Shown here piece after piece: positions 3 to 38,769 of a stretch of DNA of 64,000 nt. The notes below the pieces were generated by a model. It was not told the DNA's origin. It worked only from the letters and a program-made list of their open reading frames with translations, and ran no database searches. Source of the DNA: an uncultured Rikenellaceae bacterium (GTDB taxonomy: Bacteria; Bacteroidota; Bacteroidia; Bacteroidales; VadinHA17); the NCBI GenBank assembly GCA_964599235.1, contig CAZRDX010000007.1, positions 156,941 through 220,940 on the forward strand, in the 5' to 3' direction. The translations under genes and the position numbers were made by a program. The stretch's first letter is position 1. Every line of letters begins with the position of its first letter.

Positions 3-980
3 AATCCCGAGATACACGAACCCAACGGATACAAGGTGGGCATCATCGGTGCCGGCCCCTCGGGCCTGACCGCCGCCTATTATCTGGCGCTGCGCGGCTT
101 CGACTGCACCATTTACGAAGCCAACCCCAAAGCAGGCGGGATGACGATGTACGGGATCCCCAAATACCGCTTCCCCGAGGAGAGCCTCGACAAGCAGATC
201 GAATACATCCAGAAGATAGGTGTCAAGATCCACTTCAACACCAAGGTGGGCAAAGACATCTCCTTCAAGGAGATCTACGAGAAGTACGATGCCGTCTTCG
301 TAGGTGTCGGCTTCCCCAAACCCTGGACGCTGGGTGTCGAGGGCGAGGAGCTGAAGGGTTCGATCCAGGCGGTCAACTTCCTCTACGAGATCAACAACGG
401 CAAGCAGGTGGACGTGGGCGACAAGGTGATCGTCATCGGCGGCGGCAACGTGGCCATCGATGCGGCACGTGTGTCGCGGCGTCTGGGTGCCGACGTGACG
501 ATCCTCTACCGTCGTCGTGTGCAGGACATGCCGGCCGACTGGGAAGAGATCGAAGGAGCCGAACAGGAAGGGGTGCACATCATCCCGCAGGCCATCCCCG
601 TCAAGTTCCACGGCGACGAGCGCGGGCATGTCAAGGCGGTGGAATACCTCAAGGCCGAGATGGTCCCCGACGAGAAGGGAGGCCGTCCGCGTCCCGTGCC
701 CATCGAGGGCAGCAATACGATCATCGAGGCTACGGCCGTCCTGGGCGCTATCGGACAGCAGGGCGACTACAGCTTCCTGGAAGGGGAGTTCGCCGAGCGT
801 ATCAAGATCGAGCGGGGACGTTTCGTCGTCAACGAGAAGCAACAGACCACCGATCCCAAGGTGTTCGCCGGCGGCGACGCGGCCAACCGCACCGCCGACG
901 CCATCAGCGCCATCGCCGACGGCTACCGTGCCGTCAAAGGCATCGAGGAGATGCTGCTCGGAAAGGCGCGGAAAGCATAA
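3..980 (+). CDS. FAD/NAD(P)-dependent oxidoreductase, GltD/SudA(NfnA)-like; 5'-truncated by the window edge
   Basis: Frame is open from base 3 (NPEIHEPNGYKVGIIG...). Motifs: GIIGAGPSG (FAD), YGIPKYR, VIGGGNVAIDAAR (NAD(P)), YRR, VFAGGD. The Fe-S N-terminus is outside the window, so the exact enzyme cannot be named. Confidence 0.85.
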   Translation, partial: NPEIHEPNGYKVGIIGAGPSGLTAAYYLALRGFDCTIYEANPKAGGMTMYGIPKYRFPEESLDKQIEYIQKIGVKIHFNTKVGKDISFKEIYEKYDAVFVGVGFPKPWTLGVEGEELKGSIQAVNFLYEINNGKQVDVGDKVIVIGGGNVAIDAARVSRRLGADVTILYRRRVQDMPADWEEIEGAEQEGVHIIPQAIPVKFHGDERGHVKAVEYLKAEMVPDEKGGRPRPVPIEGSNTIIEATAVLGAIGQQGDYSFLEGEFAERIKIERGRFVVNEKQQTTDPKVFAGGDAANRTADAISAIADGYRAVKGIEEMLLGKARKA

Positions 981-1055
981 CGTCCTCGCCCGGCGGCAAC
1001 CACCGCCAGACGAACATAATGTAATCAACTCTATTTCAGACACATATACAGAATC

Positions 1056-1087
1056 CTACGTAGGTTTCTACGTAGGATTCTACGTAG
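1056..1087. repeat. Triad of CTACGTAG palindromes at 12-bp period (site 1)
   Basis: CTACGTAG at 1056-1063, 1068-1075 and 1080-1087. Bases 1051-1063 and 1068-1080 also form a 13-bp perfect inverted repeat. AT-rich gap between convergent genes. Confidence 0.95.
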
Positions 1088-1144
1088 TATAAACAATACA
1101 TTCGATTGAGTATCAACCAATAATCAATACAGTAAACAAGGATT

Positions 1145-1176
1145 TTGGACATCACCTTGCAACAAGTAATGTCCAA
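1145..1176. terminator. Possible stem-loop between convergent genes
   Basis: TTGGACAT...ATGTCCAA arms with an inner CTTG/CAAG pair; no clear adjacent U-tract. Confidence 0.35.
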
Positions 1177-1238
1177 GCCCTTTTCTGTTCATTGGCTGTC
1201 AGTTGTATACGAAGAGATTATCCCTGTCCTGTTCTCTC

Positions 1239-2420
1239 TCACTCCAATCCCAGAGCTTTCATCATGATGTAAAAGATCCCGGTGTTGTCATGGATGCCGC
1301 TGAGGCTGCAGGCTCCGGGACCGAAAGCGAAGACCGGCACCATTACGGCGGTATGGTTGGTGGAGGTGTAGCGTGTGACGACACTGTCGGCCCGGATGCT
1401 GCCGCCGTTGATGGTGAGGCCACCCGTCTCATGGTCGGCGGTGATGATGACGAGGGTATGGCCGTCGTGTGCTGCGAACTCGAGGGCTTTGCCTATGGCG
1501 CGGTCGAAATCCAGCATCTCGGTCACGAGATAGGGGGTATGGTTGTTGTGTCCGGCCCAATCGATCTGCGATCCTTCGACCATGAGGAAGAAGCCTTTCC
1601 TGTTGCGGCTAAGCATCTCGATGGCCAGTTCGGTGGCCTGAGGCAGGTAATCACCGCGGCCCAGGGCATAGGGCGGCAGATGGCCTTCGTCAACCAGGGC
1701 TGCAAGCTTGCGGTTGCGATCGGCATATTGCAGCGAATCGGGACGGGTGATCACCTGGTAACCTTTGTGTTTCAGTTCGGACACCAGGTTGCGGCCGTCG
1801 CGGCGTTGGACGAACTCCTTCAGGCCGCCGCCTATGAAGAGGTCTATATCGGTATCCAGAAACTGGGCTGCGATCTCCTCGTACATGCTTCTCCGTGGCA
1901 CATGGGCAATGAAACTGGCCGGAGTGGCATGCTCGATCTTACATGTGACCACCATTCCGGTGGCCAGTCCCTGTTCCGCAGCCTTTTCGAGGATGCTCCT
2001 GACCGGTCGGAGATCACTGTCCATGCCCAGCACGCCGTTGTTGGTCTTGTGGCCCGTGGCCAGAGCTGTGCCTCCGGCGGCCGAATCGGTGATGAGCGAG
2101 GAGGCCGACCAGGTCTCCGAGAAACCGCTCACCGGACAGTTGTTCAGCCACAGTCTTCCTCCGTTGGCCACCATCGCAGCATAGACATGGGCCACCCCCA
2201 TCCCGTCACCAATCATCAGGATCACGTTCCGCACCTTCGTCCTGTCACAAGGTGCCGGCACAACCAGCTGCGGCACCCCGTACGGCTGAGGATGCCGGTA
2301 AACCAGCGTATCCGTGTATTTCCCCGTAACTGTGGGATAGTTCCACTTCTGCTGCGCCGCAACAGGCAAAAGCAGCAGGAACATCAGCAGGAAACCAAAC
2401 AAACGTCTCGTCGTTCTCAT
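1239..2420 (-). CDS. Alkaline phosphatase (PhoA family), secreted
   Basis: Signal peptide MRTTRRLFGFLLMFLLLLPVAAQ; motifs NVILMIGDGMG, TDSAAGGTALATG (Ser nucleophile), HATPA, FFLMVEGSQIDWAGH, TADHETGG. Start moved from the ORF-track 2774 to the ATG at 2420. Confidence 0.92.
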   Translation of the reverse strand: MRTTRRLFGFLLMFLLLLPVAAQQKWNYPTVTGKYTDTLVYRHPQPYGVPQLVVPAPCDRTKVRNVILMIGDGMGVAHVYAAMVANGGRLWLNNCPVSGFSETWSASSLITDSAAGGTALATGHKTNNGVLGMDSDLRPVRSILEKAAEQGLATGMVVTCKIEHATPASFIAHVPRRSMYEEIAAQFLDTDIDLFIGGGLKEFVQRRDGRNLVSELKHKGYQVITRPDSLQYADRNRKLAALVDEGHLPPYALGRGDYLPQATELAIEMLSRNRKGFFLMVEGSQIDWAGHNNHTPYLVTEMLDFDRAIGKALEFAAHDGHTLVIITADHETGGLTINGGSIRADSVVTRYTSTNHTAVMVPVFAFGPGACSLSGIHDNTGIFYIMMKALGLE

Positions 2421-36130: not shown

Positions 36131-37738
36131 CTATGGGTTTCCCGGCCGGCTGCCCCACCAGTCGCTGTTGGGCTGCCAGGAGGGGTCCAGCATTCTTTTT
36201 CTTTGTGCTTCGAGACGGGGCCAGAGCACCTCGCGGTACCACCGGAGTTTCTCTTCATGTTTTTGTTCGTCGTATTCGGGGTCGGGCTGCGGGTAAAGGG
36301 CCTTCACCGACCGCAGCCATCCCAGCAGTTGCCGGGAGAGGGTATCCCGCACCGCCGGATAGGCGTCAGCCACGTCGTGCTGCTCACTGAGGTCGCGGCG
36401 CAGGTCGTACAGCTCCTCATGGTCATCCTCCCAGTAATGGATCAGCTTCCAGTGGCCTAGGCGGATCATAGAGGAAGGATCGCCTCCCTGGTTGCCGTAA
36501 TGAGGATAATGCCAGAACAGGGGTCGTACGGGCAGGGTGTCACCCCGCAGCAGGGGTACCAGGCTGCGACCGTCCACATGCTGGTGCGGGAGCATGGGCA
36601 GGCCGGCCAGATCCAGCAGGGTAGGATAAAGATCGGCACCGGTGACGGGTGTCTCCTCGTGTCTGCCGCCCAGGTCCATCCAGGGAACACGGATGAAGAG
36701 CGGCACGCGTATGCCTCCCTCCCACTGGTAGCCCTTGCCGCCCCGCAGCGGGGCCAGGTTCGTGGAATAAGCATCGCCGGAGACCACCCCGCCGTTGTCG
36801 GAGGTGAACACGACGATCGTCTTTCGGTCCAGTCCCAACCGCTGAAGGGCATCGAGCACATAACCCACCGCATCGTCCATCTGGGAGACCAGCCCGGCAT
36901 AGACGGGGTTGTCCTGATGCAGCCGGTAAGGGAGCCGCCGCTCCATGGCAAAGCCCTGCGGAGCGATACCCAGCGAATCAGCCTTGTCACGGAAATGACG
37001 CCACTTCTCCTCAGTGGTCTGGATAGGGGCGTGTACGGCATAAAAAGCCAGATAGGCCAGGAAAGGCTCGTCGCTGTGCTGCTCCATGAACTTCACTGTC
37101 TCCCGTGCCAGCTTCATCGAAAGGCTCATCCCCTTCTCTTCGGGGAGATCTTGCATCTTGGGATCATGAAAAGGAGAGAAATAGCGGCCGTGCGGCGGGC
37201 TGCCGGTTTCATAACCGCCTATGTTGACCTCGAAGCCGTTGTCCTCGGGATAATGTCCTTCGCCGCCCAGATGCCATTTCCCGGCGAAGAAGGTGCGGTA
37301 GCCATGCATCCGGAACGCTTCGGGGAGGAGGGTGTCCTCTCCGGCAATGTGATGGAGGTAAGGAGCGGGCAGGAGACGTGTATGACGCCCCACCATACGC
37401 CACTTCTCGCCCGAGGGCGCCCCGATCCAGTCGGTGATGCCGTGACGGGCGGTGAACTTGCCTGTCAGCAGGCTTGCACGCGAAGGACTGCACACCCCGC
37501 ACGTGGCATATGCGTTCGTGAAGACCATCCCCTCCGCAGCAATGCGATCCACATGGGGCGTCTCGTAATAGCGGCTGCCCATGCAACTGAGGTCCTTGTA
37601 CCCCAGATCATCCACCAGAATGAACAGAACATCGGGTTTTTCAGGAACTCCCTGCTTCCGCGACGACGTGGAACAGGAAACCAGAAAAGCCAGAAAAAAA
37701 GTTGAAAAAATACGTACCATGACTGCAGGATTTTTCAT
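36131..37738 (-). CDS. Formylglycine-dependent sulfatase (S1), Cys-type, probable lipoprotein
   Basis: PDVLFILVDDLG, CSPSRASLLTG, GYRTFFAGKWHLG, HAP, FTSDNGG, GKG..WEGGIRVP, ELYDL..D..E. Alternative start at ATG 37720. Confidence 0.93.
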   Translation of the reverse strand: MKNPAVMVRIFSTFFLAFLVSCSTSSRKQGVPEKPDVLFILVDDLGYKDLSCMGSRYYETPHVDRIAAEGMVFTNAYATCGVCSPSRASLLTGKFTARHGITDWIGAPSGEKWRMVGRHTRLLPAPYLHHIAGEDTLLPEAFRMHGYRTFFAGKWHLGGEGHYPEDNGFEVNIGGYETGSPPHGRYFSPFHDPKMQDLPEEKGMSLSMKLARETVKFMEQHSDEPFLAYLAFYAVHAPIQTTEEKWRHFRDKADSLGIAPQGFAMERRLPYRLHQDNPVYAGLVSQMDDAVGYVLDALQRLGLDRKTIVVFTSDNGGVVSGDAYSTNLAPLRGGKGYQWEGGIRVPLFIRVPWMDLGGRHEETPVTGADLYPTLLDLAGLPMLPHQHVDGRSLVPLLRGDTLPVRPLFWHYPHYGNQGGDPSSMIRLGHWKLIHYWEDDHEELYDLRRDLSEQHDVADAYPAVRDTLSRQLLGWLRSVKALYPQPDPEYDEQKHEEKLRWYREVLWPRLEAQRKRMLDPSWQPNSDWWGSRPGNP

Positions 37739-37750: not shown

Positions 37751-38011
37751 AGGATAATCAAAGCTGCTGCTTTCCCTTTTCCGGCAGGGTCATCTCACCG
37801 ATCATCCCCACGCTCCCACCTTCCGGCACATCCGCCCTTTCTTCCCTTACTGGCTGACAAACTATATGTTACAAGTCGTATTCCGCAAAAAGGACCAGGA
37901 ACGGACACCGAATTTACAAAAATTTTCACACAACTTCTTCCCTCCCGTCATATACAATCAGTCATAATAAATTGTATTGAAAACACTTACAAAAGTCACC
38001 GGATACACATC

Positions 38012-38043
38012 CTACGTAGACAACTACGTAGCCAGCTACGTAG
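38012..38043. repeat. Triad of CTACGTAG palindromes at 12-bp period (site 2)
   Basis: CTACGTAG at 38012-38019, 38024-38031 and 38036-38043 in an AT-rich intergenic region. Confidence 0.95.
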
Positions 38044-38118
38044 ATCTTTCATTACAATGTGATTATCAAGATCTTACCGAAACCTGATGCAACGGGGTTG
38101 TAACTGCGGGAAACATGG

Positions 38119-38769
38119 TCATTCTGTTTTTCTTTTTTTTCTGATCAGGTCGCTTGCCCGGGATTCCTCGCCACGTGCTATTCTCCGGATGTTGGAGCGG
38201 TGGGTCCAGATGAGGAGCAGGGCCACGAAGATGCCGAAGATCCGAAGCGATAAATAGGGAGAAGGCAGGATGAACCAGACGGTGACGGGGAACATGGCCC
38301 CGGCGATCATGGAGCTGAGCGACACGTAATTGAAGAGGAAGACCGAGACGATATAGGCGGCGAGGCTGATGAGCGTGGCTTCGGGGGCGATGGCCAGGGC
38401 CACGCCGAGGAAGGTGGCCACCCCTTTGCCTCCGCGGAAACGCGCAAAGAGGGGGAAGATATGTCCCAGCACGGCCGCCAGGCCCAGCACCAGCTGACGG
38501 ATCATGTAAGCTTCTTCGCCCGGCAGGGGCAGCTGATGGGTGAAGGTGGCCAGGCGCACCGCCAGCCATCCTTTGAAAGCATCGAACACCAGCACCACCA
38601 CCCCCGCCTTCCAGCCCAGGACCCGGAAGGTGTTGGCCGCACCGGCATTGCCGCTGCCGTGCTCACGGATGTCCAGATGAAAGAAAACCTTGCCGATGAT
38701 GATCGAAGAGGGGATCGAACCGAGCAGGTATGCTGCCACGACCAGCAGCACAAAACAGAGGTTCTCCAT
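38119..38769 (-). CDS. plsY: Glycerol-3-phosphate 1-O-acyltransferase
   Basis: YLLGSIP, DIREHGSGNAGAANTFR, GHIFP.F..FRGGKGVAT, HRSNIRR. Confidence 0.95.
   Translation of the reverse strand: MENLCFVLLVVAAYLLGSIPSSIIIGKVFFHLDIREHGSGNAGAANTFRVLGWKAGVVVLVFDAFKGWLAVRLATFTHQLPLPGEEAYMIRQLVLGLAAVLGHIFPLFARFRGGKGVATFLGVALAIAPEATLISLAAYIVSVFLFNYVSLSSMIAGAMFPVTVWFILPSPYLSLRIFGIFVALLLIWTHRSNIRRIARGEESRASDLIRKKRKTE

Follow-up and report, generated by a model that had tools for sequence, protein, structure and literature searches.

The DNA sites of AbrB are notoriously degenerate. MraZ, a member of the AbrB superfamily, represses its own gene by binding to a preceding series of regularly spaced repeats, namely three or more GTGGG at a 10-bp spacing upstream of the dcw cluster. 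Tandem palindromic octamers are characteristic of the metboxes of MetJ (AGACGTCT), two to five of which each take up one dimer, adjacent dimers making cooperative contacts. At the level of the chromosome, the pairs parS/ParB, NBS/Noc, SBS/SlmA and matS/MatP each combine a few to about one hundred palindromic sites per chromosome with one dedicated protein. Furthermore, REP, BIME and REPIN elements are dispersed, mostly extragenic hairpin palindromes which carry a GTAG tag, are often clustered, vary between relatives and sometimes lie in genes, a REP being defined by a GTAG at the foot of a conserved, imperfect stem-loop of 20–40 bp (PMC3733652). Neither the octamer array analysed here nor the AbrB-like protein found beside it appears to have been described previously, as no description of the array or of the protein subfamily was found in the searchable literature under the octamer or under AbrB or REPs in Bacteroidetes.

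In the window, i.e. the whole 64-kb stretch of DNA that was analysed, the exact octamer CTACGTAG occurs six times (at 1056, 1068 and 1080 and at 38012, 38024 and 38036), compared to 0.23 copies expected, and six copies were reached in none of 100 shuffles. An earlier note on this DNA had claimed that these octamers form two 12-bp-phased triads beyond chance, and both clusters are indeed triads in an exact 12-bp register (sites 1 and 2; table below). No further CTACGTAG dyad was found in the window with up to three mismatches tolerated, while octamers with a single mismatch number 12 elsewhere in the window against 8.9 by chance, i.e. they remain at chance level.

Features of the window around the two octamer arrays (positions are those of the window; a dot denotes a feature without strand)
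Feature	Position	Strand	Description
Pyr_redox_2 oxidoreductase gene	36..980	+	stop 75 nt before site 1 array
AT-rich island around site 1	1000..1274	.	30–44% GC versus about 60–66% in the flanking genes; between convergent 3' ends
Site 1 perfect inverted repeat	1050..1081	.	14-bp stem AGAATCCTACGTAG-GTTT-CTACGTAGGATTCT, loop GTTT
Site 1 array	1056..1087	.	three exact CTACGTAG, 4-nt spacers GTTT and GATT, 12-bp register
Separate 13-bp hairpin with T-rich tail	1145..1176	-	63 nt past alkaline phosphatase stop
Alkaline phosphatase gene	1239..2420	-	393 aa true product; stop 151 nt after site 1 array
Sulfatase gene	36131..37738	-	start codon 273 nt from site 2 array
AT-rich stretch around site 2	37925..38124	.	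begins at synteny breakpoint
Site 2 array	38012..38043	.	three exact CTACGTAG, spacers ACAA and CCAG
plsY	38119..38769	-	stop 75 nt from site 2 array

Site 1 lies between convergent genes, as originally stated (stops at 980 on the plus and at 1239 on the minus strand), and the inverted repeat reported there is real, although its stem measures 14 bp and is thus one base longer than the 13 bp claimed. This inverted repeat spans units 1 and 2 and reaches two bases into unit 3, and it folds as a single strand with -14.2 kcal/mol (z = -6.9). The separate hairpin between the array and the alkaline phosphatase gene is the likely terminator of that gene, and the triad is therefore not needed for this purpose. 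With regard to the flanking genes, relatives have a longer Fer4/Pyr_redox gene, of which the Pyr_redox_2 gene of the window represents the 3' part, and the listed alkaline phosphatase ORF (1239–2774) is too long at its start. A sigma-54 promoter downstream of site 1 was considered and rejected: the candidate TGGACATCACCTTGC has three mismatches to TGGCAC-N5-TTGC, matches to this consensus occur at chance frequency in the window, and the candidate constitutes one arm of a terminator-like hairpin. An IHF-like near match, to which the earlier note had drawn attention, exists as a string but is not a feature of the family, since the consensus is present in 2 of 207 array flanks where about 1 is expected.

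At site 2, a Bacteroidetes-type -7 box (TATCTTTG, minus strand, 37753–37760), as read from the sequence, adjoins the sulfatase start and is far from the array, and the array lies about 250 bp ahead of the likely promoter of the sulfatase gene. The arrangement suggests a gene-specific operator at neither site, and the view that site 1 is unlikely to hold an ordinary promoter operator stands. Additionally, site 2 was found again in an independent Logan contig (from the same run, SRR8542060), and it is therefore not an artefact of assembly, an explanation which had been raised at the outset.

Beyond the window, further copies of the array, whose absence the earlier note would have counted against its reading, were sought by a scan for the exact triad in one genome per species, all counts of which are lower bounds. 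At least 110 loci were recovered, many of them at orthologous places in different species, where the flanks have diverged to 70–90% identity. Almost all belong to about seven Bacteroidales MAGs carrying at least 5–22 arrays each, namely JBNGDI (at least 22 loci), DQWH (at least 19), JALVJE (at least 17), WFRO (at least 14), DSCJ (at least 12), CAZYQV (at least 9) and JAMOUS (at least 5); in addition, at least 5 loci are contributed by a 'Chlorobiota' MAG, at least 2 by a CPR (Spechtbacterales) MAG and at least 5 by singletons. Among the matches listed, the arrays comprise three units in 75 cases, four in 33 and five in 2, all in exact 12-bp phase (at least three exact units per array being guaranteed by the search pattern), and their flanks are mutually unrelated, with only the octamer and the phase conserved. 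The alignment of the flanks of all copies, which had been suggested earlier, was run on 600 bp all-against-all and revealed orthologous pairs and two short lineage-specific motifs, the remaining flanks being unrelated; as no common body emerged, a MITE or larger mobile element was rejected. A phage origin was also rejected, since 2.9 million viral contigs contained a single triad. A transcription-factor regulon would rarely consist of more than 100 sites with near-perfect octamers, and the pattern is more reminiscent of copied elements, an observation that counts against a binding-site reading.

The arrays are embedded in AT-rich DNA, with an average GC content of 35% within 80 bp versus 49% at 150–230 bp away (207 flanks). 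Their spacers approximate TTAA, and the unit is thus in effect a 12-bp palindrome, AACTACGTAGTT, repeated head to tail. Only about 12 of 112 arrays bear an extra flanking unit with one or two mismatches, and degenerate phased arrays beyond the selected ones do not exceed chance in 820 kb. Likewise, only about four isolated CTACGTAG octamers are present beyond the arrays in 820 kb, and none is present in the window. Spacers 1 and 3 of four-unit arrays are reverse-complementary to each other at 2.94 of 4 positions versus 1.83 by chance, and compensatory spacer differences are seen between orthologous arrays. This complementarity is not obviously needed by a protein filament, while base pairing or palindromic templating would need it. 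Adjacent units fold into perfect hairpins of 8–20 bp (z = -3.9 to -11.5), and a search of the window and of eight array loci against Rfam matched only an unrelated TPP riboswitch and a tRNA.

To define the genomic context, crude ORF calls were used for the related loci. On this basis, and among the matches listed, the spacers holding an array are tandem in 43, convergent in 14 and divergent in 11 cases, and about 90% of arrays lie outside long ORFs. The median distance of an array to a gene 3' end is 131 nt, somewhat less than the 198 nt to a 5' end. The 71 downstream genes scanned belong to 70 different Pfam families without functional enrichment, and the idea of a regulon of phosphatase/sulfatase or carbohydrate genes was rejected accordingly. 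Occurrence in all intergenic classes, presence within genes without indels and the lack of enrichment among neighbours together speak for a genome-wide function, architectural or global, more than for a gene-specific operator. A role in chromosome organisation had been among the options of the earlier note, and its broader form is favoured by the missing regulon signature. The proposed link to the terminus or to dif is not supported: the arrays are scattered over many contigs per MAG, and no dif-like site was found in the window with up to three mismatches to the dif consensus, which is that of the E. coli type. Arm-type sites of a tyrosine integrase, another option put forward initially, found no backing, as neither the neighbours of the two window sites nor the 71 genes scanned next to arrays in the related loci include an integrase.

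The organism from which the window derives is related to the array-rich MAGs, its PlsY, Mdh and malic enzyme being 89–98% identical to those on contigs from the sample of the JAMOUS MAG. The closest available relative lacks an array at the orthologous place of either window site: at site 2 the similarity stops at the plsY stop codon, where synteny breaks, and at site 1 the convergent spacer is 166 bp long and cannot be aligned. Any role of the arrays must therefore tolerate rapid gain and loss, and such gain and loss between close relatives is odd for a family of binding sites. Orthologous arrays elsewhere differ in unit number by steps of 12 bp. No insertion boundary or target duplication could be defined at intergenic sites, either by empty-site comparison with the closest relative or at orthologous loci. 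In a cellobiose 2-epimerase gene the array encodes LRSQLRSLLRSF, which aligns without gaps to LAARLQALIELF of solved, array-less homologues, and a conserved Leu and a conserved Phe are encoded by the array spacers, the ancestral residues thus being kept. It follows from this gap-free alignment and from the conserved spacer residues that the octamers arose in place, under selection or drive acting on the DNA motif, and at least some arrays were thus written in place and not inserted. Similarly, a RuvX/YqgF gene and a LuxC-like gene contain arrays, which are read as LRS-x or YV-x-x repeats.

Two lineage-specific partners accompany the arrays outside the window. The palindrome TACTTT-N4-AAAGTA flanks about 20 arrays on one side, at 53, 64 or 77 bp (JALVJE, WFRO, CAZYQV and JAMOUS), and its core, which occurs 22 times in 820 kb, is never more than 135 bp from an array. 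Between palindrome and array the length of the DNA is constant and the sequence is not, and the side of the array bearing the palindrome usually faces a gene start while the opposite side faces a gene end. Additionally, an element of about 50 bp (CTTGAGTTCAAGAATTTAGTGCAAC...) abuts nine arrays in constant orientation (JBNGDI, DQWH and DSCJ). Neither partner is present at the window sites. These partners suggest that the arrays are modules of larger protein-DNA assemblies.

To identify a candidate protein, all ORFs whose start lies within 150 nt of an array were clustered. Among the matches listed, only one recurrent family emerged, a protein of 60–69 aa that lies 7–55 nt from the array, with arrays 7–100 nt upstream of its gene over the six loci. 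This gene adjoins an array at loci L034, L085, L022 (where it is cut by the block end), L049 and L060 and at the CPR locus L047, and within the fetched loci it is present in five of the seven array-rich Bacteroidales MAGs as well as in the CPR MAG; for JALVJE and CAZYQV no copy was found among the fetched loci. The window itself contains no homologue by tblastn, and the PIR-30/JAMOUS MAG, a close relative of the genome of the window, carries the gene (L060/L125). In the related genomes this protein consists of just a SpoVT-AbrB domain, which matches PF04014 with E-values from 3e-9 to 8e-7 (above the gathering score) and bears the signature TK[IV][AS]GGSSY, and its profile matches in the PDB are AbrB N-domains. 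Among structures, the best matches of the AlphaFold model (pLDDT 85) are MazE (1ub4_C, TM 0.68), AbrB-N, VapB, SpoVT and Sso7c4. The family is small, comprising 166 representatives among 1.84 billion sequences in an exhaustive search, nearly all of 55–65 aa, while a word-indexed protein search returned just two relatives; the NCBI name of the protein is generic only. No toxin partner is adjacent, and the downstream genes vary by locus and start 50–400 nt away: at L112, which was fully read, proteins of 206 and 409 aa follow and no toxin-like gene is present, and at L167 a PIN gene lies 860 nt away. As no toxin gene directly follows or overlaps, a type II toxin-antitoxin module with a MazE/VapB-type antitoxin was rejected.

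The association was also approached from the side of the protein, by a metagenome scan independent of the DNA motif, which yielded 55 loci with 43 distinct upstream regions. Two to four phased CTACGTAG-like units (12 bp) are present within 150 nt of the start codon in 19 of these 43 regions and in none of 780 control windows. In the majority of the remaining regions the octamers are diverged, the 8+4 register being kept and the outer units inverted, as exemplified by CAACGTAT-taaa-AGCAGTAT-taaa-AGCAGTAC-ctta-ATACGTTG, CTCAGTAT-ttta-ATCAGTAT-ttta-ATACTGAG and CTACTGAG-atgt-CTACTGAG-ataa-TTCAGTAT. The class of operator broadly tracks the subclade of the protein, and no simple specificity code relating protein residues to operator class emerged. 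As the direct repeats inside these variants are incompatible with hairpins, recognition of duplex DNA in a 12-bp register fits the family better than a hairpin. Thus, the arrays constitute a family of uniform anatomy which is tightly associated, and co-varies, with a family of AbrB-like proteins, and the array preceding the AbrB-like gene looks like an autoregulatory operator, judging by sequence comparison.

We consider it fairly probable (roughly 0.6) that this protein, about 60 aa long and of the AbrB/MazE/SpoVT fold, binds cooperatively to the triads, that the array before its own gene mediates autoregulation and that the dispersed copies are generic architectural, boundary or roadblock sites. 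The cooperative binding array proposed in the earlier note thereby gains support from comparative evidence, together with a candidate protein. As regards binding, its stoichiometry, autoregulation and the role of the dispersed sites, we infer the following scheme. The 12-bp unit, with a consensus of roughly AA-CTACGTAG-TT, would form a high-affinity platform when repeated head to tail, each palindromic octamer taking one swapped-hairpin homodimer. Neighbouring dimers 12 bp apart would touch, such that three to five of them may build a short nucleoprotein stack with cooperative occupancy, in which each step of 12 bp would turn the next dimer by about 50 degrees around the helix. At the promoter of the AbrB-like gene this stack would repress transcription of that gene. 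In one Bacteroidales clade, the same array would have been multiplied to dozens of places per genome, in all kinds of intergenic regions and in coding sequence, and for these dispersed arrays, both window sites included, a generic architectural, boundary or roadblock role seems most likely, in view of their placement between transcription units, their indifference to gene function, their AT-rich setting and their occurrence in genes. A bolder extension of this scheme is possible but tentative: the arrays and the AbrB-fold protein may form a previously unrecognised genome-wide 'punctuation' system of the Bacteroidales clade, in which arrays, under selection or drive, occur about once per 30–130 kb regardless of gene function, overwrite genes codon by codon and are often coupled to TACTTT-N4-AAAGTA, and which could mark boundaries of chromosome domains or transcription units, or could represent the first transcription-factor operator amplified genome-wide by a REP-like mechanism.

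The binding reading has to be weighed against the view that the arrays are GTAG-tagged hairpins of the REP/REPIN kind, made or moved by a RAYT on single-stranded DNA, with binding by the AbrB-like protein being secondary or coincidental. We judge this to be rather unlikely, although several traits would suit it. CTACGTAG consists of CTAC and GTAG and so presents the tag typical of REPs (PMC3733652) on both strands, adjacent units form the perfect 8–20-bp hairpins described above, and spacers 1 and 3 of four-unit arrays co-vary like a stem. The arrays are also multi-copy (at least 5–22 per MAG), mainly extragenic with a 3'-end bias and variably present between close relatives, and their octamers are near-perfect, like copied elements. 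Furthermore, at L064 a 205-aa HUH/Y1 protein has its stop 7 bp from an array and matches the NCBIfam model REP_Tyr_transpos (NF047646; E 2e-19, 69.8 bits) and E. coli TnpA-REP 4ER8 (E 1.6e-4), a RAYT-like remnant persists at the orthologous L032 site (JALVJE), and a partial copy lies 2.7 kb from the array in L078. However, such a neighbour is found at one of the 110 loci listed, its score falls under the curated cut-off of 80 and it has no Pfam match, and the L064 array lies only past the stop with none 5', whereas classic REPtrons are flanked on both sides; the RAYT search, seeded with an approximate E. coli RayT sequence, found no RAYT-like gene in the window. The stem, loop and tail of a REP are absent, nothing beyond octamer and phase being conserved and loops and spacers varying freely, and no target duplication or insertion boundary was found at the arrays. 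In the one case where insertion can be judged, the epimerase array replaces homologous codons at unchanged length. The homologous operators of other clades use direct repeats that are incompatible with hairpins, and the association of arrays with the AbrB-like gene is statistically far stronger than that with a RAYT. The core of a small non-autonomous element, as suggested in the earlier note, partly survives in this REP/RAYT-like form, although a conserved body and an insertion signature are missing and arrays occur in genes without length change. A hybrid is also conceivable, with a REP-like operator captured and dispersed by a RAYT.

Two further models explain less. That the arrays act as transcribed RNA hairpins, be it as bidirectional terminators, stabilisers of mRNA 3' ends or RNase III targets, is in our estimation very unlikely. 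The strong predicted hairpins, the frequent position 50–150 nt past stop codons with 14 arrays in convergent spacers, the spacer co-variation and the flagging of site 2 units 2–3 as terminator-like by a simple scan would all suit such a role; against it, no U-tract follows the arrays, only TT being enriched there, site 1 has a terminator hairpin of its own, eleven arrays lie in divergent spacers and several in genes, the strict conservation of the stem sequence is unlike that of a pure structure element, no Rfam family was matched, and the variants upstream of the AbrB-like gene are direct repeats. An intrinsic (Rho-independent) terminator in particular was rejected, as there is no T-run beyond the TT and the arrays also occur in divergent spacers and genes. 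Least probable of all is that the octamers are a genome 'signature' like DNA-uptake sequences (DUS) or cyanobacterial HIP1, spread by molecular drive (biased uptake, repair or gene conversion) and devoid of a dedicated structural role. Perfect copies formed in place in coding sequence without indels, neighbours without functional enrichment and a word common to related species would be expected of such drive, but isolated octamers are not over-represented (the four or so beyond the arrays in 820 kb), the density is 10–100 times below that of DUS, USS or HIP1, and both the phasing of three or more units and the link to the AbrB-like gene would be left unexplained.

If the binding reading is true, an undescribed repeat family of environmental Bacteroidales is provided with a named protein-DNA pair, a 60-aa protein and a 32-bp site, in a group for which we know of no nucleoid-associated or global regulators, and the pair would show, in an unusually clean natural form, how a minimal AbrB-fold domain recognises an array cooperatively. 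A DNA word that overwrites codons in conserved enzymes at unchanged protein length bears on how families of binding sites and REP-like repeats originate, whether by selection, drive or transposition. The arrays are in addition a compact marker of this Bacteroidales clade, and they call for caution in annotation, since hairpins, 'terminator' calls and short LRS/YV protein repeats all derive from one DNA motif.

With respect to known systems, the arrays are not members of the terminator, integrase-arm/dif, IHF-site or toxin-antitoxin classes. In genomic distribution they resemble REP elements or dispersed organisation sites. Like REP, BIME and REPIN elements, they are dispersed, mostly extragenic, hairpin-forming palindromes with a GTAG tag that are often clustered, vary between relatives and sometimes lie in genes, and one RAYT-like gene abuts an array; they differ in lacking a 20–40-bp stem-loop body, in being strictly phased and formed in place, in having no RAYT flanked on both sides and in their link to a DNA-binding protein. 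Like parS, NBS, SBS and matS, they are independent of the function of their neighbours and tolerated or selected in coding sequence, although those sites are single, unphased palindromes of 12–16 bp bound by proteins of unrelated folds. The candidate protein resembles AbrB, MazE and SpoVT in matching PF04014 and in its predicted fold, which is like that of MazE, AbrB-N, VapB and SpoVT, and it resembles autoregulated antitoxins in being small, probably dimeric and encoded directly behind its presumed operator. With about 60 aa and nothing beyond the domain, it is the size of the chromatin-like Sso7c4, and PDB 2l66 and 5itj are among its structure matches. It departs from AbrB and the antitoxins by the lack of a toxin partner, by a GGSSY loop signature of its own and by a similarity to AbrB that is only weak (E about 1e-3), and its arrays, unlike AbrB operators, are strictly phased sets of three to five perfect palindromic octamers multiplied across the genome. 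For the proposed mode of binding, MetJ is the closest analogue, with its ACGT-core palindromic octamers in tandem, even though it has a ribbon-helix-helix fold, its degenerate metboxes follow one another every 8 bp without a spacer, and these define a methionine regulon where the present arrays form a function-blind dispersed set. As to function, the arrays would be most like operators of AbrB-superfamily proteins. Closest in kind is MraZ, which combines membership of the AbrB superfamily with evenly spaced repeats before its own gene; however, it forms rings, has two domains and measures about 150 aa, compared to about 60 aa for the candidate, and it recognises direct pentamers of 10-bp period at a single locus, whereas here palindromic octamers recur every 12 bp at dozens of loci.

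Some of the arrays of phased octamers are accompanied by one of two kinds of flanking sequence. Approximately 20 have a 16-bp palindrome, TACTTT-N4-AAAGTA, on one side; its distance from the array is quantised, at 53, 64 or 77(79) bp, and the AT-rich DNA between palindrome and array is fixed in length and not in sequence. When 820 kb of DNA from related loci (L-numbers, with coordinates counted within each locus) was searched for the shorter form ACTTT-N4-AAAGT, all 22 occurrences were located at most 135 bp from an array. The gene start is mostly found on the palindrome side, and some copies read TACTTTTG, which fits the Bacteroidetes -7 box TAnnTTTG.

Additionally, an element of approximately 50 bp (CTTGAGTTCAAGAATTTAGTGCAACATTTAGTAAGTTGCACTATGAAAAAG), for which Rfam returned no match, adjoins nine arrays of the Bacteroidales genomes JBNGDI, DQWH and DSCJ at a distance of 0–20 bp and in a single constant orientation. 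Its core, TTCAAGAATTTAGT, is also present in L164 and L165, in the interval between the presumed operator and the start codon of the gene for the AbrB-like protein, the candidate array binder. At L018, a TPP riboswitch forming the leader of an 800-aa gene lies approximately 250 nt downstream of an array and its adjoining element, representing one case in which this composite is positioned upstream of a defined 5' leader.

Coordinates of arrays, flanking elements and neighbouring features.
Feature	Location	Strand	Remark
TACTTT-N4-AAAGTA	L003, L006, L029, L030, L032, L039, L051, L056, L059, L064, L066, L071, L074, L075, L087, L089, L093, L095, L104, L106		example L064:7470-7485
~50-bp element	L002, L005, L008, L018, L025, L031, L072, L079, L097		example L005:5044-5095
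TPP riboswitch	L018:5270-5365	-	
Synteny breakpoint	window 38119, leftwards		plsY stop; compared with L171:4648 onwards
AGGATT/AGGATG units	L174:4640-4730		
13-bp hairpin, T-rich tail	window 1145-1176	-	TTGGACATTACTTG...GGTGATGTCCAA; 63 nt past alkaline phosphatase stop
IHF-consensus matches near window arrays	38064-38076; 1111-1123; 1122-1134		exact in one: TATCAAGATCTTA
Two arrays on one contig, among those listed	DSCJ01000115.1 (L027, L035); JBNGDI010000014.1 (L023, L092); window		
RAYT-like gene	L064:6760-7374	+	stop codon-array gap 7 bp
RAYT-like remnants	L032:3943-4020; L064:5122-5190		
RAYT-like partial copy	L078:3-248		
Array in cellobiose 2-epimerase	L035:2017-2048; L019:119-150		encodes LRSQLRSLLRSF
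Array in LuxC-like protein	L083:2196-2227; L102:3802-3833		encodes NYVVNYVDNYVD
Array in RuvX/YqgF nuclease	L013:1028-1059		encodes LRSSLRSMLRS

At the second window array, synteny with the closest relative is interrupted at the plsY stop codon. The citrate synthase, malic enzyme, mdh and plsY block is shared at 89–98% protein identity; directly past plsY the relative carries a 325-aa gene, MscS, CdaA and folP, whereas in the window the array comes next, followed by a sulfatase gene and a DUF1214/DUF1254 gene. In another relative, plsY is immediately followed by short tandem heptamer-like units that are unrelated to the arrays. Near the first window array, the hairpin downstream of the alkaline phosphatase gene is likely an intrinsic terminator; its plus-strand arm resembles a weak sigma-54 promoter, a reading that was rejected.

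The window contains seven matches to the IHF consensus (at most one mismatch), three of which lie 20–35 bp to the right of its two arrays; the arrays of other genomes do not show this pattern. Arrays listed as pairs on one contig are 37, 40 and 48 kb apart, three cases being too few to judge regular spacing.

One array directly follows a gene resembling a REP-associated tyrosine transposase (RAYT), the product of which carries the HUH motif PNHIHGIL, a long insert rich in Asn and Asp and the C-terminal WQSRFYDR...YIRNNPVKW, and scores just under the NCBIfam cut-off. Furthermore, arrays were identified in frame within real genes, encoding a cellobiose 2-epimerase, a LuxC-like protein and RuvX/YqgF, and those of the epimerase and the LuxC-like protein are each kept in two species. 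The array-encoded epimerase segment aligns without gaps to LAARLQALIELF of 3WKF/9L8I.
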